39,054 nt of DNA from Thermodesulfobacteriota bacterium (GCA_039715015.1 JBDLIE010000024.1:1-39054), one strand, 5' to 3'. Shown: positions 4,061 through 26,034, counted from the first letter of the stretch. Numbers and translations: made by a program. The notes: generated by a model from the sequence alone, not told the origin.

Positions 4061-4273
4061 ATGTCGCAAAGTGCCAAGAAGGAACCGAGTCATTCAAAGT
4101 ATGACAAGCCGGTCACCGATGAGTTGATTATGAAGATCAGCAAAGAGGTGGTTGTCAAATTCATCGAAGTGGGCCGTCTGTCGCCTGCAAAATTTGAAGA
4201 GACCTTTCAAGAGGTGCACCGGACGGTCAACAGTGTTGCCAAAGGGGATAGTGTTGACAAGGAGAGAGCATGA
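4061..4273 (+). CDS. Small conserved hypothetical protein (70 aa) coupled to mpl
   Basis: GGAG RBS before ATG 4061; KISKEVVVKFIEVGRLSP motif; stop overlaps the mpl start (ATGA). Confidence 0.8.
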   Translation: MSQSAKKEPSHSKYDKPVTDELIMKISKEVVVKFIEVGRLSPAKFEETFQEVHRTVNSVAKGDSVDKERA

Positions 4274-5724
4274 GTCAAAGCTCGCAATCTTTCTTAGATC
4301 CATCTCTTAATTTTTTCCCAGAAAAACCAAAGCATATCCACCTCATGGGTGTCTGCGGCACTGGCATGGGCGCCATGGCCGGTCTTCTCAAAAAGGCGGG
4401 TTATGCCATTAGTGGTTCTGATAGCCAGGTGTATCCGCCCATGAGTGACTATCTGGCTAAGGCCGGTATCGATGTGCTCGACGGCTATCGCCCCGAAAAT
4501 TTGAATCCACAACCCGATTTGGTGGTGGTGGGCAATGTAATTCGCCGTGATAACCCCGAGGCCCTTGAGCTTGCCCGGCTTAAAATTCCCTATGTCTCCT
4601 TTCCGCAGGCCTTACGTGAGAAGTTTTTGGCTGGGAAGAAATCGCTGGTGGTGGCCGGTACCCATGGTAAGACAACCACCTCTTCTCTGCTGGCCACCAT
4701 GCTGGCAGGGGCTGACCTTGATCCCGGCTTTATGATCGGCGGCATTGTTAAGGCCTTTCAAGCAAATTTTCACCTGGGAGATGGCGACTATTTTGTGGTT
4801 GAAGGTGATGAGTATGACACGGCCTTTTTTGACAAGGGGCCTAAGTTTCTCCATTATCAGCCCCAGATTGCTATTCTCACATCTGTTGAGTTTGACCATG
4901 CTGATATCTATGATGATTTTGAGGCGGTGAAGGCCTCCTTCGCCCGCCTGGTCTCCATTATGCCGGCAGATGGCGTTTTGATCGCCTGTTTTGATGATCC
5001 GGTTGTCCGTGACTTATGTGAGAAGGCTGGCTGTAAGGTGGTGTCCTATGGTGTTGAGCATGGCTGGGACTGGTCCTTTCAGGACATGGCGAGCTCCGGC
5101 GGCACCACCTCCTTTTCTCTTCTTTTGGAGGGGCAAAGGGCTGGAGAGTTTAAAAGCATTATGCCAGGGCGCCATAATGTCCTGAACTCCCTGGCAGTTC
5201 TTGCTGTTTTTGCTGAAATCGGTCTTTCCCAGGAGGTTATGGCCCGTGAGCTTGCCGCTTTTCAGGGCATTCGCCGGCGCCAGGAGGTGCGGGGGGTCGA
5301 AGCCGGGGTGACGGTGATTGATGATTTTGCCCACCACCCCACAGCAGTGGATGAGACATTGGCCGCCCTGAAAGGGGCCTATCCTGACCAGCGCCTTGTT
5401 GCCGTCTTTGAGCCGCGGACTAATTCCAGTCGCCGGACAATCTTCCAGGAACGGTATGCCGAAGTTTTCACCAGCGCCGATGAAGTCATCATCAAAGAAC
5501 CCGATCCTCTCCTTGGGGTGGCGCCTGAAGAGCATTTTTCCGCCCAGCAGCTTGCCACTGATCTTAAGAGGAAGGGACAGCAGGCGGCCAGTTTCCAAAA
5601 CACCGATTCCATCCTCGACCATCTTCAGGCCACGCTTCGTTCAGGAGATGTGGTTGCCATACTTTCCAACGGTGGTTTTGACAATATCCACCAACGTCTT
5701 CTTGATGATTTGCAGGGCGGATAA
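4270..5724 (+). CDS. mpl: Murein peptide ligase (peptidoglycan recycling)
   Basis: HIHLMGVCGTGMG, YPPMS, GTHGKTTTS P-loop, EGDEYDTAFFDKGPKF, DDFAHHPTA, FEPRTNSS, SNGGF. Confidence 0.95.
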   Translation: MSQSSQSFLDPSLNFFPEKPKHIHLMGVCGTGMGAMAGLLKKAGYAISGSDSQVYPPMSDYLAKAGIDVLDGYRPENLNPQPDLVVVGNVIRRDNPEALELARLKIPYVSFPQALREKFLAGKKSLVVAGTHGKTTTSSLLATMLAGADLDPGFMIGGIVKAFQANFHLGDGDYFVVEGDEYDTAFFDKGPKFLHYQPQIAILTSVEFDHADIYDDFEAVKASFARLVSIMPADGVLIACFDDPVVRDLCEKAGCKVVSYGVEHGWDWSFQDMASSGGTTSFSLLLEGQRAGEFKSIMPGRHNVLNSLAVLAVFAEIGLSQEVMARELAAFQGIRRRQEVRGVEAGVTVIDDFAHHPTAVDETLAALKGAYPDQRLVAVFEPRTNSSRRTIFQERYAEVFTSADEVIIKEPDPLLGVAPEEHFSAQQLATDLKRKGQQAASFQNTDSILDHLQATLRSGDVVAILSNGGFDNIHQRLLDDLQGG

Positions 5725-6158: not shown

Positions 6159-6575
6159 GTGGATATGTCAGCAGCTTCTCTTGGCGATCTTCTCTATATC
6201 GCCGTCTTCTTTCTCGGAGGCCTTGGTTTTGCCCTGGGCCCATTCATTCTTGTCTTTTTTATCAGCCCCAGAAAAACAAGAAATATTGCAAATAAAACAG
6301 GTCAGTTCATCGAATGTGGTGTGGAGCCAATCGGCCCTGCCTGGATTCGTTACGGTGTGGTGTTTTATCTCTACGCCCTGATGTTTCTCGCCTTTGATGT
6401 TGATGTTCTGTTTCTCTTTCCTGTGGCGATGGCCTATAACTCCGGACAGTTTGCCGGTGGATATAGGGATTTTGTAGAGATCGTCATCTTTGTTGGAATT
6501 CTGTCACTGGCACTCGTCTATGCCTGGAAAAAGGGAGTCTTCAAGTGGGATCGGAAAGTATACCGTCATCAATAG
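6159..6575 (+). CDS. nuoA: Complex I-like subunit A
   Basis: IECG loop, [33 protein letters not shown] before GTG 6159 (alternative ATG 6165). Confidence 0.95.
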
Positions 6576-7054
6576 TTCAGCTTTCAACGGTCGATAAGGT
6601 TCTTGAAATCGGCCGGGCTAATTCACTGTGGCCCATGACTTTTGGTCTGGCCTGCTGCGCCATTGAAATGATGGCCGCCGGTGCCAGCCGTTTTGACCTC
6701 TCCCGTTTCGGAGCAGAGGTGTTTAGGCCTTCACCTAGGCAATGTGATGTCATGATCGTTGCTGGCACCATCTCCAAAAAGATGTTGCCGGCAGTTAAGA
6801 CCCTCTACGATCAAATGCCGGAGCCCAAATGGGTCATTGCCATGGGCAACTGTGCCATCTCCGGCGGCCCGTTCAAGTTTGACGGCCAGTACGGCATCGT
6901 CGAAGGGGCCGATACCTTCCTGCCGGTGGATATCTATATTCCAGGCTGTCCGCCTCGGCCTGAGGCCTTGATCGAGGGTATTCTGGAGCTTGAAGAAAAG
7001 ATTACCGGCAACCGCAGGTGGCCGCGAGTCGAATCCGGGTTGAGTCAGCCATGA
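6545..7054 (+). CDS. nuoB: Complex I-like subunit B (N2 cluster)
   Basis: [49 protein letters not shown]. Confidence 0.97.
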
Positions 7055-7608
7055 ATAAAGAAAATGTAATTCAGGAATTGAAGGCCCTGGCTGCGGAAGG
7101 TATGCCCGACGAGCCAGAAGTGGCATCTGCTGCCCCAGAAGCAGTCCCTGAGGGTGAGGAAGAGGCGAAGCCTAAGAAGAAGGCCGCTCCTCCTGAACCC
7201 CGCAAGAATGGCCTGCTTGAGGTCGATTATGCCGTCAAGGGTGTCCATGTCGATGCGCAGGTCAACAGCGATCAGGTTGTCCGGGCCGCCCAGATTGCCG
7301 ACGAGGCGGGTATGAGCCTGGAGGCCATTACCGGTGTCGACTGGATCAAGGACAAGGAGATGGAGGTCATCTACGACTACTCCTACACCGGCGGCGAATG
7401 TTTCCGCCTTGTTGTCCGCGCCCGTATCCCTCGCGATGAGCCAACTATTTCCACAATCTCAGAGGTCTTTCCCGGCGCCAACTGGCATGAGCGGGAGACC
7501 TTTGATTTCTTCGGGATAAATTTCGAAGGTCATCCGCAGTTAGAGTACCTTCTGTTGCCGGAAGATTGTGATTTCCATCCCTTGCTCAAAGATTTCAAAG
7601 GATGTTAA
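7051..7608 (+). CDS. nuoC: Complex I-like subunit C with an acidic/Pro-rich N-terminal extension
   Basis: [32 protein letters not shown] overlap with nuoB. Confidence 0.93.
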
Positions 7609-7611
7609 GCC

Positions 7612-8730
7612 ATGAGTAGTCAAGCACTCAGCCAACACAAAGAACGTTTCGAGCTCAACCTGGGGCCCCAGCATCCAGCAACCCATGGTGTTCTCCGGGT
7701 TAAGCTTTTAATGGACGGCGAGTACATCGTCGAAGCCGAACCGGTCCTCGGCTATATCCATCGGATGCATGAACTCATGGGTGAGAACAGGACCTGGGCC
7801 CAATACCTGCCCAATATGGGCCGGCTCGATTATCTCTCAGCCCTGTCCTACAACCTGGGTTATGTTGAGCTGGTCGAAAAGATGGCCGGCATTGAGGTGC
7901 CGGAACGGGCCGAGTATATCCGGGTCATCACCACGGAGATGAACCGTATCTCCAGCCATCTCCTCTGGTTCGGGGCCTTTGTCCTCGACCTTGGTGGTTT
8001 TACACCCCTTCTCTACGCATTTGATGATCGTGAGCAGATCCTCGATCTGCTGGAATCAGTCACCGGTTCCCGTCTCACCTATTGCTACTACCTCTTCGGC
8101 GGCTGTTATAACGATGTTGAGGATGATTTTCTTACCGGTTGTCTGGCCCTTATCAAACGGTTGCGCTCCAGGATGCCCATGTACCACAAACTTGTCACCG
8201 GCAATGTAATCCTCAAGCAGCGTCTTGAGGATGTCGGCCCTATCTCAGCTGAGATGTGCCGTAAGTACGGGGCCACCGGTCCGGTGCTGCGCGGTTCCGG
8301 TGTCAATTACGATGTGCGCAAAAACGAGCCCTATTCCATCTATCCGGAGCTTGATTTTGACGTGCCGGTCTACAGCGAGGGTGATTCCATGGCCCGCTAC
8401 ATGGTGCGCATGGATGAGATAGACCAGAGTATGCGCATCATCGAGCAGGCCATTGCCAAGATCCCTGAAGGACCGGTGATGGCAGAAAAAGTGCCGAAGA
8501 TGATTAAGCCTGAGCCCGGCGATTATTACCATGCTGTTGAAGCTGCCCGCGGCACCTTTGGCATTCGCGCAGTGAGCGAGGGTAAAAACAAGGCATATCG
8601 CATGAAATTACGGTCCCCAACATTCTCAAACCTGAGTCTCTACCAGGAGACCAGTAAAGGCATGTTGTTGGCAGATGCCCTGGCACTCATGGGCAGCCTT
8701 GACCTGGTCATCCCAGAGATTGATCGCTAA
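7612..8730 (+). CDS. nuoD: Complex I-like subunit D (quinone-binding type)
   Basis: NLGPQHPATHGVLR, GYIHR, RLDY, C-terminal GSLDLVIPEIDR; no [NiFe] CxxC pairs. Confidence 0.97.
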   Translation: MSSQALSQHKERFELNLGPQHPATHGVLRVKLLMDGEYIVEAEPVLGYIHRMHELMGENRTWAQYLPNMGRLDYLSALSYNLGYVELVEKMAGIEVPERAEYIRVITTEMNRISSHLLWFGAFVLDLGGFTPLLYAFDDREQILDLLESVTGSRLTYCYYLFGGCYNDVEDDFLTGCLALIKRLRSRMPMYHKLVTGNVILKQRLEDVGPISAEMCRKYGATGPVLRGSGVNYDVRKNEPYSIYPELDFDVPVYSEGDSMARYMVRMDEIDQSMRIIEQAIAKIPEGPVMAEKVPKMIKPEPGDYYHAVEAARGTFGIRAVSEGKNKAYRMKLRSPTFSNLSLYQETSKGMLLADALALMGSLDLVIPEIDR

Positions 8731-8742
8731 GGAGAGATAACA

Positions 8743-9756
8743 ATGGATCTTGGTATCAATGTAGTTGAAATGGTTATCTATCTGGTGGGGATTATTGCCT
8801 TTGCCGCAGGTAACGCCGCCTATCTGGTATGGGTGGAACGTAAGGGTGCTGCCCATATCCAGCGCCGGACCGGCCCGAAAGAGGTTGGCCCCTTTGGTCT
8901 CCTGCAGCCTTTGGCTGATGGTGCCAAACTGATGAGTAAGCAGATTATCTTCCCCGATGGTGTTGACAAACCCCTCTTTATGATAGCGCCGCTCCTTGCC
9001 ATGGTTCCGGCCGTGATGATCTTTGTCACCATCCCTTTTTCAGAGACCATTGTCGCCCGGGACATTAATATCGGCCTGCTCATGATCTTTGCCTTTGCTT
9101 CGGTGAATATCCTGGCCCTGCTTCTCGGCGGCTGGGCATCCCGCAATAAGTATGCTGTTATCTCGGCCGCCCGTGGTGTTTCGCAGAACGTCGCCTACGA
9201 GATTCCCATGCTGGTTATTACCATCACCGTTGTTTTGATCTCTGGCAGCATGAACTTGAAAGAGATCGTTGCCACCCAGGCCGGCCCTTTTTGGAACTGG
9301 AACTGGTTGCCCCTTAACGGTAACTTCCTTGGGCCCATAACCTTTATCATGTTTTACATCTGCTCCCTGGCTGAGACAAACCGAGCTCCCTTTGATCTTG
9401 GTGAAGCCGAATCAGAACTAATTGCCGGTTTCCACACCGAATATGCCTCCATGGGTTTTGGTCTGTTTTTCATGGGCGAGTATGCCAATATCGTAATTGG
9501 TGCTGCCCTGACCACTATCCTGTTTTTGGGGGGCTGGTACAGCCCCTTTCCCGATACTGTTCCATATATTGGTCAGGCCGGTCTCTGGTGGTTCCTTATC
9601 AAGATGTACCTACTGATCTGGCTCGTGGTGCTGATCCGCTGGACCTATCCTCGCGTCACCCTGTGGTCCCTGCTTAATCTTTCCTGGAAAATATTGATTC
9701 CTTTCTCCCTCTTAAACCTGCTGGCCAGTGCCGGACTCGTAAAGTTCCTGGCGTAG
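8743..9756 (+). CDS. nuoH: Complex I-like subunit H
   Basis: ERK..AHIQRRTGP..VGPFGLLQPLADGAK, AETNRAPFDLGEAESEL..GFHTEY, RWTYPR. Confidence 0.97.
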   Translation: MDLGINVVEMVIYLVGIIAFAAGNAAYLVWVERKGAAHIQRRTGPKEVGPFGLLQPLADGAKLMSKQIIFPDGVDKPLFMIAPLLAMVPAVMIFVTIPFSETIVARDINIGLLMIFAFASVNILALLLGGWASRNKYAVISAARGVSQNVAYEIPMLVITITVVLISGSMNLKEIVATQAGPFWNWNWLPLNGNFLGPITFIMFYICSLAETNRAPFDLGEAESELIAGFHTEYASMGFGLFFMGEYANIVIGAALTTILFLGGWYSPFPDTVPYIGQAGLWWFLIKMYLLIWLVVLIRWTYPRVTLWSLLNLSWKILIPFSLLNLLASAGLVKFLA

Positions 9757-9814
9757 CGATGGGGCGAAAATAGATAGAGATATCATTAAAAGAACAAGGA
9801 CAAGAGGCCGTCAT

Positions 9815-10255
9815 ATGGCTGGATATTTTACAAATATACTGAGTGGGACTAAGAGTCTTTTAGTTGGGCTCTCCATCACTCAAAAAGAGTTTTTTAAGAA
9901 GCCGGTTACCCTGCAGTACCCTTGGGAATCACTGGAGATGACTCCCCTTTATCGGGGCCATATCCAGTTGGTCAAGGATGAGGAGTCCGATACCCACCGC
10001 TGTATCTCATGCGGTATGTGCCAGCGGAGCTGCCCCTCCAACTGCATCACCGTCAAGGGTGAGAAACAGGAAGGTGTCAAGGGTAAGGTTCTTGTCAAGT
10101 ATGATCTCGATTTCACCAAGTGCAGCCTCTGTGGACAATGTATTAATAGTTGTCCGACGACCGCCATTGAATTTTCCAAGGAGTACAATTTGGCAAGTAC
10201 CCGTAAGGAAGATTATCACTATGATTTGTTGAAACGATTGAAGGAGCAGAAGTAA
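9815..10255 (+). CDS. nuoI: Complex I-like subunit I (2x[4Fe-4S])
   Basis: VTLQYP; CISCGMCQRSCP and CSLCGQCINSCP. Confidence 0.96.
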   Translation: MAGYFTNILSGTKSLLVGLSITQKEFFKKPVTLQYPWESLEMTPLYRGHIQLVKDEESDTHRCISCGMCQRSCPSNCITVKGEKQEGVKGKVLVKYDLDFTKCSLCGQCINSCPTTAIEFSKEYNLASTRKEDYHYDLLKRLKEQK

Positions 10256-10797
10256 TGAATCTTTCTATTTCTCCTGACGTTGTCCCTATTCTCAGGGAAG
10301 GCATCTTTCTCGGGATGCTCATCGTCACAGTTCTTGGCGCCTTGATGGCCACCTGTTCCAAGCGCATGATCCGGGCAGTTCTTGGTCTTGTTGTCTGCTT
10401 CTTGGGGATTGCCGGCATCTATTACTACCTTAACAGCCCCTTTGTTGCCCTGATGCAGCTTCTCATCTATGTGGGGGCTGTGGCCATCACCATCTGCTTT
10501 GCCATTATGCTCGCTGATCCAGATGATGACAAGTTGACCGCCAAGACACCTGGTCTGGCCGGTCCCTTTGCCGTCCTCCTTGGTGGGGCGGTTACCTGGG
10601 TCCTTGCATCCACAGCCATGAGCGCCCAATGGATGGCCCCGGCAGTCAAGGTTAATGAAGGCTCGGTGAAACAGGTTGGTGAATCACTACTTACCACCTA
10701 CAGCATGGTTTTTGAGTTGGTCTCCATAGTCCTGCTCATTGCCATTCTCGGTTCACTGGTTATCGCCAGATCTGGGAGGGATAAAGCAGAATGTTAA
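10255..10797 (+). CDS. nuoJ: Complex I-like subunit J
   Basis: QLLIYVGAV, VGESLLTTYSMVFELVSIVLL; 5 hydrophobic segments. Confidence 0.93.
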   Translation: MNLSISPDVVPILREGIFLGMLIVTVLGALMATCSKRMIRAVLGLVVCFLGIAGIYYYLNSPFVALMQLLIYVGAVAITICFAIMLADPDDDKLTAKTPGLAGPFAVLLGGAVTWVLASTAMSAQWMAPAVKVNEGSVKQVGESLLTTYSMVFELVSIVLLIAILGSLVIARSGRDKAEC

Positions 10798-11111
10798 CGT
10801 TAAGCACCCAACTCAACACCTATCTTTTCATCGGGGCCATGCTCTTTGGTTTTGGAGTCTTTGGTCTGGTGAAGAGGCCCAGTCTCATCGGTATGCTGAT
10901 CGCCGCCGAGCTCGTTCTCTGCGGGGCCTCTGTGAATTTTATGGCCTTTAATAACTTTCTGGCTCCAGACCCAACCGTGGGCCAGATCATCACCCTGTTT
11001 ATTATGGCCATTGCCGCTGCTGAGGCGGCCATTGCCATGAGTATTGTTGTAGCCGTTTATAGAAACTATAAGTCCATCGAAACAGAGGACTTGGTAGATC
11101 TCCAAGGTTAA
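10791..11111 (+). CDS. nuoK: Complex I-like subunit K
   Basis: LIAAELVL and AAAEAAIA (both conserved Glu); 3 TM segments. Confidence 0.95.
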   Translation: MLTLSTQLNTYLFIGAMLFGFGVFGLVKRPSLIGMLIAAELVLCGASVNFMAFNNFLAPDPTVGQIITLFIMAIAAAEAAIAMSIVVAVYRNYKSIETEDLVDLQG

Positions 11112-11128
11112 AAGAAGGTTATAGGGAT

Positions 11129-12622
11129 ATGGAAATTACCGCGCCAACCATAATCAACTCGTCAATATTGCTCTGGGCATTATTGATTCCCCTTGTTGGA
11201 GCCCTAGGTGTCTTCAGCTTTGGTAAGGACAGCCCAAACTTCAGGGAGGGCAGCTCTGTGCTTGCTGCCATTGGTCTTTTTCTGACCATCCTTTCCATGA
11301 AGGATACAGTGCTTGCCGGCAATATGTATCAGTGGCAGGTTTTTGATATTCTGCCCGGCTTGACGCTTACTCTGCGGGCCGATGCCTTCTCCATGATCTT
11401 TGCTCTCATTGCTTCAGGACTGTGGATCGCCGCAGCCTTTTACTCCATGGGCTATATGCGCGGTCTAAATGAACATGCCCAGACCCGTTTTAATACCTGT
11501 TTTGCCCTGGCCATCTTCGGTGCCATTGGTGTTGCTTTTTCCGATAACCTTTTCACCATGTACCTCTTTTATGAGTTTGTGTCGATTTCAACCTATCCCC
11601 TGGTTGCCCATCACCAGGATGACGAGGCCTATGAAGGTGCCAAGAAGTATATTGTTTATCTGACCACCACAGCGAAAGGGCTGTTGTTGCCGGCCATGAT
11701 CCTTATCTATGTGCTCACCGGCACCCTGGACTTCCCCACCAATATTTATGAGGGCATGCTGGGCGGCGATGTACAGAGCTGGCTGGTTATCATGCTCTTT
11801 GTCTTCTGCCTCTTCGGCTTTGCCAAGAACGGCGTCATGCCGTTCCACCACTGGCTGCCCGGAGCCATGGTTGCTCCGACGCCAGTTTCTGCTCTGCTCC
11901 ATGCCGTTGCCGTTGTTAAGGTCGGAGTCTTCTGTACGGCCCGTGGCTTCCTCTATATCTTTGGTGTGGATTTGATGACCAAGCTTAACCTTGGCATCCC
12001 AACGGCTTATTTTGTCGGTTTTACCATACTTATGGCCTCAGCCATTGCCCTTACCAAGGACAATCTTAAGGCCCGTTTGGCCTATTCCACCGTCAGTCAG
12101 CTTTCCTACATTATCCTGGGTGTCTGTCTGCTGACCCCCAACGGTATTGCCGGCGGCCTGATTCATATTGCCAACCACGCCTTTTCCAAGATTACCCTCT
12201 TCTTCTGCGCCGGCGCCATCTATGTCGCCACCCACAAGAAGTATATATCTGAGATGAGCGGTTTGGGGCGGACCATGCCCTGGACCTTTGGTGCCTTTGC
12301 TGTGGCGTCGCTCAGCATGATCGGCGCGCCACCGGTTGCCGGTTTTGTTACTAAGTGGAAGCTGCTGGTGGGAACTATCGAGTCTGGTGCCTTGGGCATC
12401 ATCTTGATCCTGCTGGCCAGTACCCTGCTTAATGTCGGTTATTTTGCTCCGGTTACCTACAAGGCCTTTTTTGGCAAACGCCCTGAAGGCGAGGTAGAGA
12501 CCGGCGTCAAAGAGGCGCCGCTTAGCATGGTGGTTCCCCTGTGCGCTGCCTGTGCTATCTCAGTTTACATTGGTATTAACCCAGACTTTTTCATGGATTT
12601 AGTTAAGGCGGTGATAGGATGA
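11129..12622 (+). CDS. Antiporter-like subunit (MrpD/NuoL superfamily) without a lateral helix
   Basis: LFYEF, FAKNGVMPFHHWLPGAMVAPTPVSALLH..VVKVG, LAYSTVSQL, HAFSKITLF, GFVTKW; ends after TM14. Confidence 0.9.
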   Translation: MEITAPTIINSSILLWALLIPLVGALGVFSFGKDSPNFREGSSVLAAIGLFLTILSMKDTVLAGNMYQWQVFDILPGLTLTLRADAFSMIFALIASGLWIAAAFYSMGYMRGLNEHAQTRFNTCFALAIFGAIGVAFSDNLFTMYLFYEFVSISTYPLVAHHQDDEAYEGAKKYIVYLTTTAKGLLLPAMILIYVLTGTLDFPTNIYEGMLGGDVQSWLVIMLFVFCLFGFAKNGVMPFHHWLPGAMVAPTPVSALLHAVAVVKVGVFCTARGFLYIFGVDLMTKLNLGIPTAYFVGFTILMASAIALTKDNLKARLAYSTVSQLSYIILGVCLLTPNGIAGGLIHIANHAFSKITLFFCAGAIYVATHKKYISEMSGLGRTMPWTFGAFAVASLSMIGAPPVAGFVTKWKLLVGTIESGALGIILILLASTLLNVGYFAPVTYKAFFGKRPEGEVETGVKEAPLSMVVPLCAACAISVYIGINPDFFMDLVKAVIG

Positions 12623-12876
12623 TACTTGTCCAACTGATCGATTATCTCCGGGATCGTCTCAAATATGTCAACAGGGTCTGTTATGTTGTTCTGGCCGCTG
12701 TTGCTGTTTGGGGATCTCTTGTGGCCTATGATAGCCATCATGCCCATACGGCAATGGAAAAATGGCCCTTCTTCTGGTCGATTTTCGGCTTCCTTGCCTG
12801 CGCTATTATTATTGTGCTCTCCAAGTGGTACGGCCACTCTGGCATCATGACTCGGGAGGATTACTACGATGATTGA
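12619..12876 (+). CDS. 85-aa two-TM membrane protein within the nuo-like operon
   Basis: Two hydrophobic segments; PFFWSIFGFLAC and REDYYD; overlaps both neighbours. Confidence 0.85.
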   Translation: MILVQLIDYLRDRLKYVNRVCYVVLAAVAVWGSLVAYDSHHAHTAMEKWPFFWSIFGFLACAIIIVLSKWYGHSGIMTREDYYDD

Positions 12877-14659
12877 TTTCTGGATGCACCCTGCTGCTAT
12901 TCTCATAGTGGGCGCCTTACTCTTGCCCTTTATGCAAAATCCGGTGGTTCGCCGCCCCTTTTTGATCGCCATACCGGTGCTTACCTTTTTACAGGTTATG
13001 GTCGTCAACGGTGCTCCTGGCACCTATGGCGTTGTAAGCTGGATGGACTGGATGCTCACCTTTGGCCGCGTTGATAACCTGAGTATCATTTTCGGCTTCA
13101 TCATGAGTTTGATGTGCTGTGTCGGTACTATCTACGGACTCCATGTCAAGAATCCATATGAACATATGGCTGCCTGGCTTTATGTGGCCGGTTCTTTAGG
13201 GGCCATCTACTGCGGCGATTATCTGGTTCTCTTCCTCTTTTGGGAGCTCATGGCATTCTCCTCGGTATTCCTTGTTTGGTTCCGGAAACGTAAAGAATCC
13301 CAGAAGATTGGTTACCGATATCTTTTGGTGCATACCGCTGGCGGTCTCTTTCTGCTGGCTGGCTTTGTCCTTAGATACCATGCAACAGGTGGCGATTACT
13401 CCTTTGGCCAGCTTGATGTTGACCACCCAACCTTGTACACCTACCTGATTGCCATCGGCCTTATCCTCAATGCCGCTGTGCCACCGTTCCATTCCTGGCT
13501 GCCTGATGCCTATGGCGAGGCCACGGTAACTGGATCGGTGTTCATGTGTGCCTTTACAACGAAGACTGCCATTTACGCCATGGCCCGTTCCTTGGCAGGG
13601 TTTGATATCTTGATTCCCATGGGCGTTATTATGGCCCTCTACGGTGTTGTCTACGCTGTACTTGAAAACGACGCCCGGCGACTGCTGGCCTGGCATATTA
13701 TCTCCCAGGTCGGTTACATGGTCACCGGGGTCGGTATTGGTACGGCCCTGGCCATAAACGGTACATGCGCCCATGCCTTTGCCCATATCCTTTATAAGGG
13801 ACTGCTCTTCATGGGCACCGGTTCTGTGCTCTACATGACCGGCAAATCGAAATTCACCGAACTGGGTGGGCTCTATAAAAAGATGCCCTGGACCTTTGTC
13901 TTTACCATGATTGGCGGCCTGTCGATCTCGGCCTGGCCCCTCTTTTCGGGGTTTGTTTCAAAGTCGATGATTGTTGCTGCGGCCTTTGGCGATCATATCA
14001 TGTGGGCCGGTTTTCTGCTTACCCTGGCCTCAGCCGGTACCTTTCTCCATACAGGTCTGAAGGTTCCTTATTACATCTGGTTTGGTAAGAACAACTGTTC
14101 CGAAGAGACCTGGGAAAAGGCCCAGGATCCACCACTGAATATGATGTTTGCCATGGGTATTGCCTCTTTTCTCTGTCTGTTGATCGGCGTTTACCTGCCC
14201 TTCATGTATGACATGCTGCCATACCAGTGGGCTGAGTATCATCCTTACACCGCCTATCATCTTGCTGAGACCCTGCAGATCCTCTGCTTTACCGCCCTTG
14301 GTTTCTTCCTGCTTCTTTCCAAGTTAACCCCTGAGGCGAAGATATCCATCGATCTCGACTGGTTTTACCGGAAGGGTGGTGATGTTTTTATGTGGCTCGA
14401 CCGCGTAGTCTTCCAGACGGTTGACAACTGGGTGGGTCGTATTTGGGACAAGGTCGGTATTTTGCCGCTGATGACCATCTCTAAGTTCTGGTCATGGTTT
14501 GACTGGCACGGCATTGACGGAGTTGTCGATGGTGTAGCCCGCGGTGTTCGTGGCCTTGGTGGCCAGGTACGCCGCCTGCAGTCTGGCCAGATTCAATACA
14601 ATATATATTTTGCGGCAACGGTCATGGCTGTTGCTATCATAGCCTACGTCTTTGCGTAA
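12869..14659 (+). CDS. Antiporter-like subunit: MrpD-type core with a NuoL-type C-terminal lateral helix and terminal TM
   Basis: LFWELMA, LNAAVPPFHSWLPDAY, FTTKTA, HAFAHILYKGLLF, GFVSKS; C-terminal DWFY...IDGVVDG...RRLQSGQIQYN + TM. Confidence 0.9.
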   Translation: MIDFWMHPAAILIVGALLLPFMQNPVVRRPFLIAIPVLTFLQVMVVNGAPGTYGVVSWMDWMLTFGRVDNLSIIFGFIMSLMCCVGTIYGLHVKNPYEHMAAWLYVAGSLGAIYCGDYLVLFLFWELMAFSSVFLVWFRKRKESQKIGYRYLLVHTAGGLFLLAGFVLRYHATGGDYSFGQLDVDHPTLYTYLIAIGLILNAAVPPFHSWLPDAYGEATVTGSVFMCAFTTKTAIYAMARSLAGFDILIPMGVIMALYGVVYAVLENDARRLLAWHIISQVGYMVTGVGIGTALAINGTCAHAFAHILYKGLLFMGTGSVLYMTGKSKFTELGGLYKKMPWTFVFTMIGGLSISAWPLFSGFVSKSMIVAAAFGDHIMWAGFLLTLASAGTFLHTGLKVPYYIWFGKNNCSEETWEKAQDPPLNMMFAMGIASFLCLLIGVYLPFMYDMLPYQWAEYHPYTAYHLAETLQILCFTALGFFLLLSKLTPEAKISIDLDWFYRKGGDVFMWLDRVVFQTVDNWVGRIWDKVGILPLMTISKFWSWFDWHGIDGVVDGVARGVRGLGGQVRRLQSGQIQYNIYFAATVMAVAIIAYVFA

Positions 14660-14681
14660 CGTGAACAAGAGGTTTTAAGGA

Positions 14682-16181
14682 ATGGAACTATTATATGGTG
14701 CTGAGGGAAATCTTCTCAGCTGGCTTATTTTCATACCTCTCATTGGTGCAGGCCTGTTGTTTGTCACGCCTGGCGAGGAAAACCAGAGACGTCTGGCTTT
14801 TGTGGTTACGACCTTTAACGCCATACTATCTCTCAAGCTTTGGAGCGGTTTTGACTCATCTACTCCTGACTTGCAGTTTTGGGTGCGTGAAGACTGGATA
14901 CCGTCATTAAATATTGAGTACGCCTTGGGTATTGATGGTATCAGCATCCTGCTGGTTATGCTGACCACCTTTATTATGCCCCTCTGTGTCCTAGGCTCCT
15001 GGACCTATATCTCCAAGCGGGTCAAGGAATTCATGATCTGCCTGCTGGTCATGGAGACCGCCATGATAGGTGTGTTCTGTGCCCTTGATTTTGTTCTCTT
15101 CTATGTTTTTTGGGAGATGATGCTGATCCCCATGTACCTGCTTATTGGTGTCTGGGGCGGCCCGCGCAAAAAATACGCCTCCATCAAGTTTTTCCTCTAT
15201 ACCCTGGCCGGTTCGGTGATGCTTCTTGTTGCCATTATCGCCCTCTATCTCTGGAATGACAACTCCTGGTATATTCCAGATATGATGAGTCAGGGCTATT
15301 CCATGACCTTTCAGGTCTGGGTATTTTTGGCCTTCTTTCTGGCTTTTGCCATCAAGGTTCCCATGTTCCCCTTCCATACATGGTTACCAGCAGCCCATGT
15401 TGAGGCCCCCGGCGCTGGTTCCGTTATCCTGGCATCTGTTCTGTTGAAGATGGGTACTTACGGCTTCCTGCGTTTTTGTCTGCCCATAACACCCCAGGCC
15501 ACCTTGGCCATTGGACCATATATGCTCTGGCTGTCTGTTGCTGGTATCCTTTATGGTGGTTTTACCGCCCTGGCCCAGTCCGACATGAAAAAGCTAATTG
15601 CTTACTCTTCAGTGGGCCATATGGGTTTTGTCACCCTGGGTATCTTTGTCTTGAACAAGACTGGTCTTGAGGGCGCTCTTATCCAGATGATCAACCATGG
15701 TATAACCACCGGCGCTCTCTTCCTCATGGTTGGTATGATCTATGAGCGGACCCATAGTCGTGAAATCAAGGATCATTCCGGATTGGCCTATAATTTGCCC
15801 ATCTTTGTTACCTTTATAACAATATTCTCCTTAAGTTCTTTAGGGTTCCCGGCAACCAATAGCTTTATTGGTGAGTTTCTCATCCTTGCCGGTGGTTTTG
15901 AACATAGTAAGATTATTGCAGGGGCAGCTGTCCCTGGCGCCATTCTTGCCGCTGCCTATATGCTTCGTCTTCTCCAATATGTTCTTTTTAAAGGCGAGGG
16001 GCGCTCTGATATCAGTGATCTTAACTTCAGGGAGACTGTTACCCTGGTACCCCTGTTGATATTCGTGTTCTGGATTGGTCTTGCCCCGGAACCATTTATG
16101 AATGTAATGCACACCAGTGTTGAGTTTCTGCTTAATCAGGTTCACAGCTCCCAGGCCGTTGCATCACTGGCTATACATTAA
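14682..16181 (+). CDS. nuoM: Complex I-like subunit M
   Basis: LGIDGIS, FYVFWE, AIKVPMFPFHTWLPAAHVEAP, LLKMGTYG, KKLIAYSSVGHMG, FIGEF. Confidence 0.97.
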   Translation: MELLYGAEGNLLSWLIFIPLIGAGLLFVTPGEENQRRLAFVVTTFNAILSLKLWSGFDSSTPDLQFWVREDWIPSLNIEYALGIDGISILLVMLTTFIMPLCVLGSWTYISKRVKEFMICLLVMETAMIGVFCALDFVLFYVFWEMMLIPMYLLIGVWGGPRKKYASIKFFLYTLAGSVMLLVAIIALYLWNDNSWYIPDMMSQGYSMTFQVWVFLAFFLAFAIKVPMFPFHTWLPAAHVEAPGAGSVILASVLLKMGTYGFLRFCLPITPQATLAIGPYMLWLSVAGILYGGFTALAQSDMKKLIAYSSVGHMGFVTLGIFVLNKTGLEGALIQMINHGITTGALFLMVGMIYERTHSREIKDHSGLAYNLPIFVTFITIFSLSSLGFPATNSFIGEFLILAGGFEHSKIIAGAAVPGAILAAAYMLRLLQYVLFKGEGRSDISDLNFRETVTLVPLLIFVFWIGLAPEPFMNVMHTSVEFLLNQVHSSQAVASLAIH

Positions 16182-16276
16182 TGAGAGTTTGATCGATCGG
16201 TGGCGCCATGATTTCCGAGTGGAAATGATTGGTAGCTTGAAACATCAGGTTGATAATTAAACATTAGGAATACACC

Positions 16277-17695
16277 ATGTTGTTCTTACCAGAATTGTTC
16301 CTCCTCGGCGGCAGCCTTCTTCTCTTCTTTATTACCCTTGGAGAGGATAAAGGCACCCTGGCAAAAAATGTTACCATCGCCATTGGCCTTGTATTTACCA
16401 TTCTATGCGTCGTGGGAATAAATAATTCCGGCACTCTATTCTACGGTGCCTATGCAATCGATTTCTACTCACAGTTTTTTAAGATTATTATTGGTTTAGG
16501 TACGACCTTTGTCGTATTTCTCGCCCCGGATATCAGGGGAATTAACACCAAGGTAAAGGCTGAATATTACCTGTTTATGGTTCTATCGGTCCTTGGCCTG
16601 GTTATGCTGATGTCCAGTGCTGAGCTTCTCACTCTGTTTGTCTCCTTGGAGCTTTCTTCCTACGCACTCTATCTCATGGTGCCCATGCGTGATGACTCTA
16701 CCGGTGAGAGAAGGCAGATGGAGGCAGGCATTAAGTATGTCATGTTCGGGGTGATCTCCACCGGCGCCATGCTCTTTGGCATGTCCTATCTTTTTGGTCT
16801 CACCGGAACCACCTATTTTGTGGAACTTGTTCCTCAATTACATAGTATGTTTGCCGCCAAGCCGGTTGCTCTCCTTGCCGTGCTTCTGGTTATGGTTGGT
16901 TTCTTTTATAAGCTTGCCATCTTCCCCTTTCATTTCTGGGTTCCAGATGTCTATGAAGGGGCGGCCAATCCCACCACGTCTTTTATTGCCACCGTGCCCA
17001 AGATTGGCGCCGTGGCAATTATGATCCGTATTGTTACCTTGGCCAATCCCGGCGAAGCCAGCTGGCTGGTTCTTGTTTTGATGATCGCAGCGGTTGCCTC
17101 CATGTTTTATGGTAATCTCTCGGCCCTGGTTCAGACAGATGTCAAACGGATGCTTGGTTTTTCAGGTATTGCCCATGCCGGTTTTGTTCTTCTTGGTCTG
17201 CTGACCATGGATGAACTGGGTTATGTCCGTGCCACCTTCTATATTATTGGTTACTTATTGATGAACCTGGCCTGCTTTCTTGTTATCTGCAATGTTTCTG
17301 TGCAGGGAGAGAATGTCAGCCGTGATGATCTGAAGGGGCTTTATAAGAGATCACCCTTCCTGGCCCTGATCCTTCTGGTTGGCATGTTTGCTCTGGCCGG
17401 TATTCCACCCTTTGTAGGCTTCATCGGTAAATTCATGCTTCTCACCGGTGCCCTGCAGGCCGATCATCTGACTTTGGTTATCCTGGCCGCCCTAAATACC
17501 GCCATCGCTATTTTCTATTATCTCTCTGTTGTTCGCGTCGCCTTTACCTCGGATCCGGAAGATCGTCCTGACGTTGTGATTGGTGCTTCCACCCGGGCGG
17601 TTGGCGTGATTTTAATGGTGGTCATTGTTTACATGGGTGTTGCTCCTAACTATATTTTGAATGTCGCCAGCCAGGCCATGAAGGTCATTATGTAA
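16277..17695 (+). CDS. nuoN: Complex I-like subunit N
   Basis: SLELSSY, EAGIKY, YKLAIFPFHFWVPDVYEGA, PKIG, AGIPPFVGFIGKF. Confidence 0.97.
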   Translation: MLFLPELFLLGGSLLLFFITLGEDKGTLAKNVTIAIGLVFTILCVVGINNSGTLFYGAYAIDFYSQFFKIIIGLGTTFVVFLAPDIRGINTKVKAEYYLFMVLSVLGLVMLMSSAELLTLFVSLELSSYALYLMVPMRDDSTGERRQMEAGIKYVMFGVISTGAMLFGMSYLFGLTGTTYFVELVPQLHSMFAAKPVALLAVLLVMVGFFYKLAIFPFHFWVPDVYEGAANPTTSFIATVPKIGAVAIMIRIVTLANPGEASWLVLVLMIAAVASMFYGNLSALVQTDVKRMLGFSGIAHAGFVLLGLLTMDELGYVRATFYIIGYLLMNLACFLVICNVSVQGENVSRDDLKGLYKRSPFLALILLVGMFALAGIPPFVGFIGKFMLLTGALQADHLTLVILAALNTAIAIFYYLSVVRVAFTSDPEDRPDVVIGASTRAVGVILMVVIVYMGVAPNYILNVASQAMKVIM

Positions 17696-17718
17696 AAAAA
17701 GGCTGCTATAAATTTTTG

Positions 17719-17752
17719 AAAGGCCGCAGGTTATTAACCAGCGGCCTTTTTT
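17719..17752 (+). terminator. Intrinsic terminator of the nuo-like operon
   Basis: AAAGGCCGC-a-GGTT..AACC-a-GCGGCCTTT followed by further Ts. Confidence 0.8.
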
Positions 17753-17897
17753 ATTTATGAAGCATTGCCACCCGGGCAACGGATGAGAGCTTGACAAGTA
17801 AAAAATATTTGTTTAATAACCTTGGTAATCTGTCAGGGAGGTCTTTCCTGTAGATACTTGAGGTATGCGACACTTCCTCTCTATTGGTAATGATTGG

Positions 17898-17973
17898 GCG
17901 GACATAGCTCAGTTGGTAGAGTACAAGCTTCCCAAGCTTGGTGTCGCGGGTTCGATCCCCGTTGTCCGCTCCA
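17898..17973 (+). tRNA. tRNA-Gly(CCC)
   Basis: GCGGACATAGCTCAG...; anticodon arm CAAGC-TTCCCAA-GCTTG; GGTTCGATCC; CCA end; 76 nt. Confidence 0.98.
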
Positions 17974-18044
17974 GCCTCTCACCGCTTGAATGTGGTGTTT
18001 CTTTTGTCGGTAGGCAAAAGAAGTATTTTTGAAGTTGTACCTGC

Positions 18045-18069
18045 AAAGTGGGCTCTGCCCGCTTTTTTT
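18045..18069 (+). promoter_or_regulatory. rimP leader terminator hairpin (NusA-linked attenuator)
   Basis: AAAGTGGGC-tct-GCCCGCTTT followed by a T-run upstream of rimP, matching the widespread GTGGGC..GCCCAC rimP-leader motif. Confidence 0.75.
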
Positions 18070-18140
18070 ATTGTATCAAAAGAAGATCGGCTCACTCCTC
18101 CTTGGTTTGGTGGAGGAGCCTTTATTTAAAAGAGGTAGCT

Positions 18141-18596
18141 ATGGCCCAGAGCATGCTCTTGGACAGGCTTCATGACATTATTGAGCCCATTGCCTCTGAC
18201 CATGGTCTGGAGCTTGTTGAGGTTCAGTACCGCCAGGAACAGCATGGCTGGGTGTTGCGCATCATCATCTACAAGAAGGATGGGGTGTCTGTTGATGACT
18301 GCGCCCAGGTGAGCCGCGAGACGAGCCATGTCCTTGATGTAGAAGATGTCATTCCTTATAAGTATCATTTGGAGGTTTCCTCTCCGGGTTTGGAGAGGCC
18401 GCTTACCACCCCCCGTGATTTTGAGAGAAACCTCGGTAAAAAAATAAAGATATCCTTTGCCGATGATGATCTTGTCAGTGGCCAGGGGATTATTGATAAA
18501 GTTGACGGTGATGAAATTACTTTGAAGAGCGATAACCAGTCCCTGACCTTTACCTGCGACAAGGTAAAAAGGGCCAGATTGGTAATCGAGTTTTAA
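18141..18596 (+). CDS. rimP: Ribosome maturation factor RimP
   Basis: GVSVDDCAQVSR, YHLEVSSPGLERPL; GAGG RBS before ATG 18141. Confidence 0.96.
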   Translation: MAQSMLLDRLHDIIEPIASDHGLELVEVQYRQEQHGWVLRIIIYKKDGVSVDDCAQVSRETSHVLDVEDVIPYKYHLEVSSPGLERPLTTPRDFERNLGKKIKISFADDDLVSGQGIIDKVDGDEITLKSDNQSLTFTCDKVKRARLVIEF

Positions 18597-18649
18597 AGGG
18601 TACTCCGAGTAATATTACTAAATATCTTCACTCCACCTGGAGAAAATTG

Positions 18650-20050
18650 ATGATTACAGAGCTTAAAAGAATAATAGACCAAATCAGCCGAGATAAGGGT
18701 TTTGATCGCACCATCCTTGTTGAGGCCCTTGAGTCAGCTGTTCTTTCTGCGGCCCATAAAAAGTTTGGCCAGCGGCGCGATCTCGATGTCCGCTTTAACG
18801 AAGAATTGGGAGAGGTTGAACTTTTTCAGTTTAGAACCGTTGTCGACAAGGTCGAGGATGAACAGACCGAAGTTTCACTTAAAGAAGCAGTTTCCCTTGA
18901 TCCTGATGTGGAGATGGGTGATGAACTCGGTTCCAAGATGGATGATGTGGCTGATCTTGGCCGTATTGCAGCGCAGTCTGCTAAGCAGGTCATTATTCAG
19001 AAAATGCGCGATGCCGAACGTGATGTCATCTATGACATGTATAAGAATCGCGAAGGTGAAATCTTAAACGGTATTGTGCAGCGTTTTGAACGTGGCAATA
19101 TGGTTGTTAATCTTGGCCGCACCGATGCTCTGCTCCCCAAAAGCGAAATGATGCCGAGAAGGTCCTACCGTCAGGGGGACCGCGTACGGGCCCTGCTCCT
19201 CGAGGTTCGCGAGTCGGCCCGGGATCACCAGCTCATTCTTTCAAGAACAAGCGATCAGTTTCTGGTTAATCTTTTTACCATTGAGGTTCCGGAAATCCAC
19301 GAAGGTATTGTCAAGATTATTACCGCCGTTCGTGAGCCTGGCATGCGTGCCAAGATCGGGGTTGTCTCCTCTGAGACTGATGTCGATCCGGTCGGGGCCT
19401 GTGTTGGGATGAAGGGTTCCAGGGTCCAAAATGTCGTTCAAGAGTTACAGGGGGAGAAGATTGATATTGTGCCCTGGAGTCCAGACCCTGCCAGGTATGT
19501 GTCAAATGCCCTGTCGCCGGCTCAGGTTTCCATGGTCTCCGTTGATGAGGATAATAAGGCCTTGCTGGTGATTGTCCCTGATGATCAGTTATCCCTTGCT
19601 ATTGGTCGCGGTGGTCAGAATGTACGTCTTGCCTCCATGCTCCTTGGCTGGAAGATCGATGTGAAGAGCGAATCACGCTATGCCAAGATGGATGAGCCGG
19701 GTTTTAAAACTTTAATGCTTATTCCCAAAATGAATGATAAAAATGCCGAGATTCTTTTTGATAACGGCATTGGTCATATTGATGAACTCCTTAAGGCAGA
19801 ACCGGAAGAGGTTGCCCAGTTGCTTAAATGTGACGTTGAAGATGCCAAAGCTATCATTGAGGCGGCTGGCTCGGTAGATGTCTCTGAATTCGTTGACTTA
19901 GAGGATGAGGGCACTGAGGTTGAAGAGAAAGGAGGGGGCGAAGGAGCGCAAGAAGCCATCGAGGCTGGGGATTCAGAAGTAGAAGCCCCTTCAGACCAAA
20001 CAACTGCTGAGAGTGATGAGCAGGATGGCGAACAGGAATCTGAAGAGTAG
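18650..20050 (+). CDS. nusA: Transcription factor NusA with an acidic C-terminal tail
   Basis: GRIAAQSAKQVI, VDPVGACVGMKGSRV, LSLAIGRGGQNVRLA. Confidence 0.98.
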   Translation: MITELKRIIDQISRDKGFDRTILVEALESAVLSAAHKKFGQRRDLDVRFNEELGEVELFQFRTVVDKVEDEQTEVSLKEAVSLDPDVEMGDELGSKMDDVADLGRIAAQSAKQVIIQKMRDAERDVIYDMYKNREGEILNGIVQRFERGNMVVNLGRTDALLPKSEMMPRRSYRQGDRVRALLLEVRESARDHQLILSRTSDQFLVNLFTIEVPEIHEGIVKIITAVREPGMRAKIGVVSSETDVDPVGACVGMKGSRVQNVVQELQGEKIDIVPWSPDPARYVSNALSPAQVSMVSVDEDNKALLVIVPDDQLSLAIGRGGQNVRLASMLLGWKIDVKSESRYAKMDEPGFKTLMLIPKMNDKNAEILFDNGIGHIDELLKAEPEEVAQLLKCDVEDAKAIIEAAGSVDVSEFVDLEDEGTEVEEKGGGEGAQEAIEAGDSEVEAPSDQTTAESDEQDGEQESEE

Positions 20051-20297
20051 GAAAAAATTCCCACAGGGGCCAATGCGGACCTGTGTTATATGCCGGACAA
20101 AGGCACCTAAGAAAGAGCTGGTCAGATTTGCGCTGCCAGCGAATATTGCCGGCAGTGAAAAGAAAGGGCGCGGAGCCTATGTCTGTGTAGAGCATGACTC
20201 TGTACAGATTGAAAGATATAAAAAAAAATTAGCCAAGGCATTACGTTGTGATGCCGAGGCCTTGCATAATCATTTGATGGGCGAGAGCAGGAGCTGA
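20025..20297 (+). CDS. ylxR: YlxR/DUF448 RNA-binding protein
   Basis: PMRTCVICR..KKELVRF and GRGAYVC; lies between nusA and infB. Start uncertain. Confidence 0.85.
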   Translation: MANRNLKSRKKFPQGPMRTCVICRTKAPKKELVRFALPANIAGSEKKGRGAYVCVEHDSVQIERYKKKLAKALRCDAEALHNHLMGESRS

Positions 20298-20300
20298 GTA

Positions 20301-22985: not shown

Positions 22986-23014
22986 GTTGCCTGCCTCTGA
23001 TAGTTTTAGGAACA

Positions 23015-23057
23015 ACAAAGCGCACGAAGAGTCTTTCTTCATGCGCTTTGTCTTCTT
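23015..23057 (+). terminator. Hairpin/terminator after infB
   Basis: ACAAAGCGCAcGAAGA...TCTTCaTGCGCTTTGT with an interrupted T-tail. Confidence 0.55.
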
Positions 23058-23065
23058 GTAAACGC

Positions 23066-23184
23066 AAATAAGAATTTGTGAATTTGAGAAATAAGAATTT
23101 GAGTAGAAGGTACTTTTTCTTAATTAACAACCATTCCTTCTACTCAACTACTCATCTTCTTGTTTCTCAACTACTCATTACTTA
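23066..23184. repeat. Inverted pair of degenerate 7-8-mer tandem arrays
   Basis: Left arm has AAATAAGAATTTG twice (period 23); right arm has CTCAACTACTCAT twice (period 23). TTGAGTAGAAGG/CCTTCTACTCAA and TTGAGAAATAAGAA/TTCTTGTTTCTCAA are complementary. Confidence 0.7.
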
Positions 23185-23195
23185 CATTTTAGAAC

Positions 23196-23597
23196 ATGGC
23201 CAGAAATAAATCCCGCTATAGCCTGCCGCAAGAACTCGCCGCAAGCCCTAAGAGACGACCGGCCCGCGTTGCTGATATGATCCGCAATGAGGTTGCCTCC
23301 CTGCTTCTTTTTGGTGTTAAGGATCCCCGCGTTCAGAATATCACCATTGTCCGGGCCAGGGTGACAGATGATCTGCGCACGGCCCGTATCTATTTCTCCT
23401 GCCCGGCCGAACAGGCTGCCGAGGCCAAGGCTGGTTTGACCTCAGCCCGCGGTTTTATCCGTAGTCATCTGGCTAAGGAAATAAAAATGCGCTATGTGCC
23501 GGAGCTTATCTTCGAGTATGATACAAACCAGGACGAGTGTGATCGTTTAAATTCCATCTTTGAGGAGATTAAGAAAGACGATGAGTCAGCCTCCTGA
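23196..23597 (+). CDS. rbfA: Ribosome-binding factor A
   Basis: RPARVADMIR, VKDPR, DLRTARIY, GFIRSHL..MRYVPELIFEYD. Confidence 0.96.
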   Translation: MARNKSRYSLPQELAASPKRRPARVADMIRNEVASLLLFGVKDPRVQNITIVRARVTDDLRTARIYFSCPAEQAAEAKAGLTSARGFIRSHLAKEIKMRYVPELIFEYDTNQDECDRLNSIFEEIKKDDESAS

Positions 23598-25874: not shown

Positions 25875-25881
25875 GTCGTAT

Positions 25882-25916: not shown

Positions 25917-25956
25917 ATTAAGTTGCAGAAATAAAAGAGCACGGTGTTTCAAGGAG

Positions 25957-26017: not shown

Positions 26018-26034
26018 GCAACACGAACACCTGT

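Follow-up and report, generated by a model that had tools for sequence, protein, structure and literature searches.

Among the closest described systems is the 'green complex I' of Rhizobium and Sinorhizobium, in which, according to Degli Esposti & Martinez-Romero (2016) as summarised in PMC9040806, two MrpD-like subunits take the place of the one NuoL. Here, we analyzed a nuo operon at positions 6159 to 17695 of a 39,054-nucleotide stretch of DNA from a Thermodesulfobacteriota bacterium (GCA_039715015.1 JBDLIE010000024.1:1-39054; the whole stretch is hereafter called the window), which an earlier note had described as an apparent Nuo/Mrp chimera devoid of an NADH module. The comparisons presented below point to a membrane arm of the already known green type joined to a headless complex I, which as a whole is probably a proton-coupled ferredoxin:menaquinone oxidoreductase working mostly in reverse in this organism.

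Operon composition and type of membrane arm

The operon comprises 13 intact open reading frames (ORFs), all on the + strand and extending from 6159 or 6165 to 17695, with the order A-B-C-D-H-I-J-K-[497 aa]-[85 aa]-[596 aa]-M-N and the sizes (in amino acids, aa) that the earlier note had given. The best NCBIfam matches of the operon proteins were to the NuoA, B, C, D, H, I, J, K, M, and N families, while the 497-aa subunit, the 85-aa protein, and the 596-aa subunit are referred to as X, S, and Y, respectively. The features are as follows (TM, transmembrane helix):

6159..6575, +, nuoA; GTG 6159 or ATG 6165 are possible starts; PF00507 and NCBIfam NuoA families
6545..7054, +, nuoB; tandem-Cys motif for cluster N2; TIGR01957 and PRK06411 above cut-off
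7051..7608, +, nuoC; PF00329 at residues 70-183; net charge -18; acidic Pro/Lys-rich N-terminal extension
7612..8730, +, nuoD; quinone-site His21/His25/Tyr74/Asp126; no Ni-binding CxxC
8743..9756, +, nuoH; PRK06076.1-2 above cut-off
9815..10255, +, nuoI; two 4Fe-4S motifs; net charge +4
10255..10797, +, nuoJ; NCBIfam match
10791..11111, +, nuoK; PRK05715.1-2 above cut-off
11129..12622, +, X, 497-aa antiporter-like subunit equivalent to the rhizobial first MrpD-like subunit; no lateral helix
12619..12876, +, S, 85-aa conserved two-TM protein; its gene overlaps those of X and Y on either side; no family model
12869..14659, +, Y, 596-aa antiporter-like subunit equivalent to MrpD2 of Yu et al.; lateral helix of 73 residues (498-570), then a final TM
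14682..16181, +, nuoM; TIGR01972 601 bits (cut-off 263.8); TM12 Glu398
16277..17695, +, nuoN; TIGR01770 359 bits (cut-off 332.6)
17718..17759, +, intrinsic-terminator-like hairpin with U-run (the hairpin itself at 17718-17751)

X scored above the cut-off of the 'cation/H+ antiporter subunit D' model PRK08375.1-1 (800 bits versus 663) and below those of NuoL (TIGR01974; 196/407.5) and NuoM (TIGR01972; 179/263.8), and Y exceeded the cut-off of PRK12668 (733/564) and stayed below that of NuoL (139/407.5). Both proteins are 24% identical to the operon's NuoM and fall outside the NuoM clade, which bears out the earlier claim that the additional subunit is not a second NuoM. No NuoL was found in the operon or elsewhere in the genome, whose seven antiporter-like proteins are all encoded by this operon and a separate mrp operon. 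S gave no NCBIfam or Pfam match at the cut-offs used (a Pfam search on 49 members returned scattered weak matches, in at most 4 of 49) and only 'hypothetical protein' clusters in the ESM Atlas, while its homolog was present in 109 of the 111 loci carrying full X and Y. The possibility that S is a split-off TM15 or helix start of NuoL, MrpA, or Y was rejected (HHalign probabilities of 0.1-0.6%; no hidden Markov model match beyond its own family).

On pSymA of S. meliloti and p1 of R. lentis, the corresponding genes are arranged as J-K-X-84 aa-Y-M-N-A-B-C-D-E-F-G; the S. meliloti arm has the sizes [487]-[84]-[586] and shares 55, 41, 51, and 52% identity with X, S, Y, and NuoM, respectively. X of the window and its rhizobial counterparts share a 29-row clade (support 99 in FastTree and 95 in IQ-TREE), and Y and its counterparts a 30/31-row clade (89 and 93, respectively). 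Both systems have in common the J-K-X-small-Y-M-N order, a helix length of 74 in Y, an Asn in TM7 of Y, and a Lys in TM6 of X, and the operon displays the features by which the green type is described in the summary cited above, namely two MrpD-like subunits instead of NuoL, with rhizobial orthologs, one NuoM and one NuoN, and hence four antiporter-like subunits. However, the rhizobial operons contain nuoE, F, and G and follow the order J..N-A..G with H and I on the other strand, whereas the window's operon is headless, runs from A to N, and encodes a NuoD only 42% identical to theirs. These comparisons suggest that the membrane arm, rather than the whole operon, belongs to the green type. The novelty attributed to the chimera did not survive the phylogeny, since X and Y fall in the already described rhizobial 'green complex I', an outcome that the earlier note had itself named as speaking against its proposal.

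The host genome, which is 99.99% complete, was searched for nuoE, nuoF, and nuoG. There was no match to NuoE (PF01257), the sole PF01512 match, expected for NuoF, was RnfC inside an rnfCDGEAB-like cluster, and the NuoG-like matches were a formate-dehydrogenase-like molybdoenzyme (the best one, adjoining acetyl-CoA synthase), NapA, and other molybdoenzymes. The absence of nuoEFG, observed earlier for the operon, thus extends to the whole genome. Among 31 related genomes including the host, NuoF above the TIGR01959 cut-off was found in none (0/31) and sub-threshold homologs in 6, while 26 contained a Y homolog. Residues H21, H25, Y74, and D126 of NuoD align with H220, H224, Y273, and D325 of translated E. 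coli NuoCD, and the first CxxC of HycE aligns with D73/S76 of NuoD, which has no CxxC at all; PF00374 had no match in the genome. NuoD is accordingly of the quinone type and, as previously proposed, not a hydrogenase subunit of group 4 [NiFe] enzymes.

Two side observations concern the head. A locus next to acetyl-CoA synthase (L144:2984-7111, G000:C5) carries a 1377-aa formate-dehydrogenase-like frame that contains a single in-frame TGA and is joined to 2Fe-2S and FAD/NAD(P)-binding domains; it is likely a selenoprotein of the Wood-Ljungdahl cluster. In Desulfobacterota green-type operons, NuoE/F/G-like genes lie within one locus (L126) and immediately upstream of the operon in two others (L125 and L128); therefore, the head appears to have been gained or lost independently of the arm.

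Origin and distribution of the X-S-Y trio

The search for a separate mrp operon, suggested in the earlier note, revealed a complete one on C1 of the host genome, with the order E-F-G-B-B-C-D1-D2-small-small-D3 and three MrpD; its D2 shares 51% identity with X, its small protein 38% with S, and its D3 43% with Y. A 139-row FastTree phylogeny was built from 43 hand-picked loci out of about 120 and reference proteins, with Y cut at 520 residues. X and Y formed clades of 46 (support 100) and 47 rows (support 99), each separate from NuoL, NuoM, NuoN, MrpA, MrpD, and HyfB/D/F, with long-branch warnings at the deep joins. In both clades, Mrp-context copies branched first and complex I copies were nested, when rooted on one long-branched haloarchaeal row. 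The paralogous trio of the host's own three-MrpD operon and the nesting of the complex I copies support the earlier proposal that X-S-Y derives from multi-MrpD Mrp operons and replaces NuoL. Moreover, in two mrp operons (L079 and L091) the X and Y copies group inside the complex I sequences, and in one nuo operon (L129) Y is of the own-Mrp type, which indicates transfer between Mrp and complex I in both directions. Monophyly of complex-I-context Y was rejected by the approximately unbiased test (p-AU 2.6e-5), that of complex-I-context X was not (p-AU 0.067).

Two further arrangements were seen in mrp-type loci. The host's own mrp operon (L001:8481-8693) and two other loci (L098 and L129) encode a second small protein of 70 aa with a His/Ser-rich tail, located between D2 and the S homolog and absent from the window's operon, while the mrp operon L092 (G023:C22) has two Y-type genes in tandem and no S homolog, giving an Mrp with four antiporter-like subunits.

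A GTDB genome scan yielded at least 593 relatives, and loci were counted in the best 80 of these. The complete A-to-N cassette was present in 52, a consistent part truncated at a contig end in 21, the order K-M-X-S-Y-N in 6, and an mrp operon in 1; NuoE, F, G, or L was found in the flank of none of these 80 loci. The closest relatives among the matches listed were metagenome-assembled genomes (MAGs) of Desulfurivibrionaceae/Desulfobulbaceae (93-96%), and several matches came from Verrucomicrobia. Across the phylum, 71 of the 151 genomes sampled contained a Y homolog. When 40 Y matches were chosen by coverage, all 20 full-length ones lay in nuo operons, and all 20 that ended near residue 510 lay in mrp operons.

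In the six loci with the K-M-X-S-Y-N order (L056, L062, L063, L064, L066, and L068), the A-K genes and N are about 25-57% identical to those of the window, and M, X, and Y 65-74%; because of these split identities, the cassette looks like a hybrid of two operons. Two such complexes are present within one MAG in the pairs L064/L065 and L068/L027. Eight Verrucomicrobia loci (L036, L048-L052, L055, and L060) contain the headless cassette with a Y of 60-64% identity and are nested among Desulfobulbales copies, which suggests acquisition by horizontal transfer.

Arm architecture, proton stoichiometry and electron route

In an AlphaFold2 model of Y (mean predicted local distance difference test score 88.5, lower in the distal helix), residues 498-570 form one continuous helix that is followed by the final TM. 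The span from a conserved D-x-x-Y anchor to the terminal QxG/xTG motif is 74 residues in Y of both the window and S. meliloti, as compared with 45-50 in 6 of 7 NuoL and 22 in one MrpA (anchors of NuoL and MrpA being partly set by eye), so the helix of Y is about 26 residues longer than the lateral helix of NuoL. From the anchor to the last TM, the distance is 80-85 residues in all 98 complex-I-type Y. A further 26-residue helix insert is present where there is a fifth subunit (Yu et al., PMC9040806), and increments of about 26 residues would match helices spanning one, two, three, and four subunits, which argues for a position of Y at the tip. Y ends in a NuoL-like IDG...QxG tail solely in the complex I context. 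A comparison of its C-terminal 180 aa with the PDB gave nothing significant, and Foldseek returned MrpA, NdhF, and NuoL alike for the Y model, with no discrimination between them.

A basic residue is found in TM6 of X in 92 of 92 complex I copies (Lys in 90, His in 2; Lys183 in the window) and in 0 of 23 Mrp copies, including two back-transferred ones. In TM12 of the neighboring subunit, 90 of 91 NuoM carry a Glu, and all 21 Mrp D1 carry a Lys. Since R175 of E. coli NuoL is coupled to E407 of NuoM (as stated in the consulted part of PMC11938283), this pattern suggests that X occupies the seat of NuoL beside NuoM. Taken together, these features suggest a linear arm with the order NuoN-NuoM-X(497)-Y(596), in which Lys183 of X would act as Arg175 of NuoL against the TM12 Glu of NuoM, Y at the tip would clamp three subunits by means of a lateral helix that exceeds that of NuoL by one subunit-width, and S would be a structural subunit of the X/Y module. 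A complex prediction with X(8-497), Y(1-420), and S gave a score of 0.10 (mark 0.32).

Several points weigh against this arrangement. Lys183 aligns with D178 of NuoL, one turn from R175, the 92-versus-23 count comes from related sequences with about one clear context switch (L079/L091), and the monophyly of complex-I-context X, as given above, was not rejected. In addition, the Mrp-context helices of Y, measured from the anchor to the last TM, ranged from 51 to 108 residues (median 78.5, n=24), so that the prediction of a helix uniformly one step shorter in this context was not borne out.

Concerning proton translocation, a full charged axis is retained in X, NuoM, and NuoN, that of X being E149/K233/H258/K264/H346/H350/K354/K409 with a TM8 His of the MrpA/NuoL type. 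Y, by contrast, has Asn201 at the position of the TM7 Lys, an Asn shared by 98 of 100 complex I copies and all 24 Mrp copies, and may for this reason add no proton. It is therefore quite possible, though we consider it the less probable option, that pumping is confined to three of the four antiporter-like subunits, with 4 H+ per 2 electrons, and that Y serves as a structural strut with a lateral helix: Y lacks the Lys of the Glu-TM5/Lys-TM7 pair that controls each subunit according to the consulted part of PMC11938283, the TM8 His of NuoL and MrpA is found in X and not in Y, and E. coli HycC likewise has no TM7 Lys (L208). Nevertheless, the charges of Y are near-invariant (E126 and K232 in 124/124, K365 in 123/124, plus H302 and H306), which is unlikely in a dead subunit, and a Y-specific TM6 His155, present in 123 of 124 copies, could substitute for the Lys. 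A fifth proton from Y, and with it the higher ion stoichiometry put forward earlier, is thus plausible, though unproven because of the Asn.

The genome contains dsrA, acetyl-CoA synthase, nifH, two napA, two PF02621 menaquinone-pathway genes, Rnf, PFOR-family enzymes, and seven small ferredoxin-like ORFs; the search for a NiFe hydrogenase was negative. This gene set fits a sulfur-fed autotroph that has to make low-potential electrons. With potentials of about -75 mV for menaquinone and -450 mV for ferredoxin, two electrons require about 0.75 eV, i.e., 4.2-5 protons at 150-180 mV, and a further pump would thus be of use. NuoB/D/H would oxidise menaquinol supplied by sulfur metabolism, an influx of 4 or 5 protons per 2 electrons would lift the electrons via N2 and NuoI to ferredoxin, and reduced ferredoxin would feed Wood-Ljungdahl CO2 fixation, nitrogenase, and sulfur reduction. 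The earlier note had proposed a ferredoxin/flavodoxin:menaquinone oxidoreductase, possibly reversed; ferredoxin and the reverse direction are the best reading, while flavodoxin is less likely, as the only PF00258 match in the genome lies inside a 414-aa frame.

No gene for a redox partner flanks the operon among the neighbors inspected upstream and downstream in the window. The net charge of NuoI (+4 in the window; median +3 and range -6 to +9 over 88 homologs; -1 to -4 in three NuoEFG-bearing loci) was considered as a sign of ferredoxin docking and set aside as weak in view of that range. At 7051-7240 of the window, NuoC has an acidic, Pro/Lys-rich N-terminal extension of about 60 residues ahead of its PF00329 domain, which might serve a soluble partner as a docking arm.

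Proteome data are available for a cultured relative, Desulfurivibrio dismutans AMeS2, whose cluster RS03515-03575 (PMC12142623) consists of 13 locus tags with no N-module and with the same order and sizes. The 12 loci examined correspond to A, C, D, H, I, J, K, an 'antiporter subunit D family' protein of 495 aa, a hypothetical protein of 83 aa, an 'antiporter subunit D' of 594 aa, M, and N; they were matched by order, size, and annotation, not by sequence, and the consulted part of PMC12142623 lists the cluster as NuoAHJKLMN with no remark on extra subunits. The same source describes it as 'strongly upregulated during sulfur disproportionation': in S8 disproportionation versus formate+nitrate, the log2 change was 2.2 for X (p 0.002), 2.6 for NuoM (p 0.024), 2.2 for NuoD, and 1.8 for NuoI, and Y was quantified only on S8. 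This induction makes the complex a candidate source of low-potential electrons for these organisms.

On the other side, 5 of the 12 loci examined in D. dismutans escaped detection (A, J, K, N, and the small protein), and a Dissulfuribacter thermophilus nuo cluster whose annotation includes an ordinary NuoL was, according to the consulted part of PMC13490349, higher on H2/sulfite than in thiosulfate disproportionation; because of this opposite trend, induction in disproportionation is not general. Furthermore, Rnf could supply the ferredoxin instead, and in the literature examined we found no measurement of activity, direction, partner, or stoichiometry for any green complex. A ferredoxin donor has also been proposed for the headless Desulfitobacterium enzyme (PMC11238625, as far as consulted), which speaks for a forward reaction in vivo, with reduced ferredoxin from PFOR, CODH, or a formate-dehydrogenase-like enzyme reducing menaquinone and protons being pumped out. 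We regard this direction as rather unlikely: the PFOR-family genes, the two NapA sinks, and the rhizobial homologs, in which NuoEFG shows that the arm also pairs with an NADH head, are compatible with it, but the genome looks like that of an autotroph and diazotroph with no hydrogenase found, for which ferredoxin is a demand rather than a supply, and the D. dismutans cluster is lower on formate+nitrate (PMC12142623, same part), where low-potential electrons are available.

Na+ coupling, which the earlier note had also raised, seems very improbable. X and Y derive from a Na+/H+ antiporter operon, and the closest relatives among the matches listed come from marine and estuarine records. However, in the consulted part of PMC7419157, protons pass via MrpA-N/MrpD and sodium via MrpBCEFG/MrpA-C, the Mrp structure excluding the MrpA-N/MrpD interface from the Na+ path, and Na+ coupling is not supported here because MrpBCEFG and MrpA-C are all absent from the operon. 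In addition, the genome retains the separate complete mrp operon, and its ATP synthase c subunit has Met at the position where Na+-type rings have Gln. That the trio stays outside complex I, as a co-transcribed antiporter piece assembling with the small subunits of the mrp operon, is scarcely credible, given that, despite its Mrp derivation and the copies moved back into mrp operons (L079 and L091), the genome has no other NuoL, the NuoL-like tail of Y is confined to complex I, the mrp operon already has a trio of its own, and the increase of X and Y accompanies that of NuoD, I, and M in the D. dismutans data cited. X, S, and Y are thus predicted to assemble with the Nuo subunits into one pumping complex, for which the reverse, ferredoxin-reducing mode is still preferred.

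More doubtful is a wider picture, which we offer only tentatively, of X-S-Y as a swappable plug-in that moved both ways between Mrp and complex I, docked on NuoM by one acquired TM6 lysine and a longer lateral helix, and made the enzyme a five-proton complex I and the missing menaquinol-to-ferredoxin device in sulfur-disproportionating Desulfobulbales, with a His replacing the TM7 lysine in the fourth pump.

Downstream of nuoN, the hairpin and its U-run (-20.6 kcal/mol, z -4.4; 1 of 200 shuffles equally good) agree with the operon-closing terminator reported earlier, although the hairpin at 17718-17751 was absent from the output of a simple terminator scan. Beyond it, the window contains a tRNA-Gly, a gene which we take to be rimP-like, nusA, infB, and pnp (17898-28214), and cobalamin genes at 35537-37390 (a PF02277 phosphoribosyltransferase and cobS); a Mur ligase gene lies upstream of the operon at 4270-5724.

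Comparison with known systems

Complex_I_3 of Ca. Manganitrophaceae (PMC9040806) likewise uses this pair of MrpD-like subunits instead of NuoL and has been proposed to work in reverse as well, passing electrons from quinol to ferredoxin, but it contains two NuoM, five antiporter-like subunits, and the further 26-residue helix insert, whereas the window has one NuoM. The 2M complex I (Chadwick et al. 2018, as summarised in PMC9040806) also has four antiporter-like subunits and a lengthened lateral helix; its fourth subunit, however, is a second NuoM and NuoL is kept, whereas the window has no NuoL and X and Y lie outside the NuoM clade in a tree without published 2M sequences. With the 11-subunit headless enzymes, of which that of Desulfitobacterium hafniense is described in the consulted part of PMC11238625, the operon shares the nuoABCD-HIJK order, the absence of NuoEFG, a quinone-type NuoD, and ferredoxin as the proposed partner, but those enzymes have 11 genes, an ordinary NuoL, and three antiporter-like subunits, as opposed to 13 genes and no NuoL here. 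The three-MrpD Mrp operons (C1 of the host and a Haloarcula marina plasmid), the source of the X-S-Y block, differ in having MrpE, F, G, B, C, and D1 instead of Nuo subunits, no TM6 Lys in X, and a divergent Y tail; MrpB, C, E, F, G, and the C-terminal domain of MrpA, which define a Mrp Na+/H+ antiporter, are present in the C1 operon and absent from the window's.

No structure of the green type was found among the PDB matches (best about 1e-39), and no explicit description of the headless form in Desulfobulbales was found in the literature searched, although the papers defining the green and 2M complexes may already deal with the small protein and the helix length as well as with the headless form. 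As the arm design is already published and the cassette is common, the operon carries little weight as a discovery; it is of interest as a natural experiment, in which an arm of four subunits, one of them with Asn instead of the TM7 lysine, can test whether the stoichiometry of complex I follows the count of antiporter-like subunits. The arrangement is not novel, because the same membrane arm has been published as rhizobial green complex I, from which the present enzyme is distinguished by its missing head.

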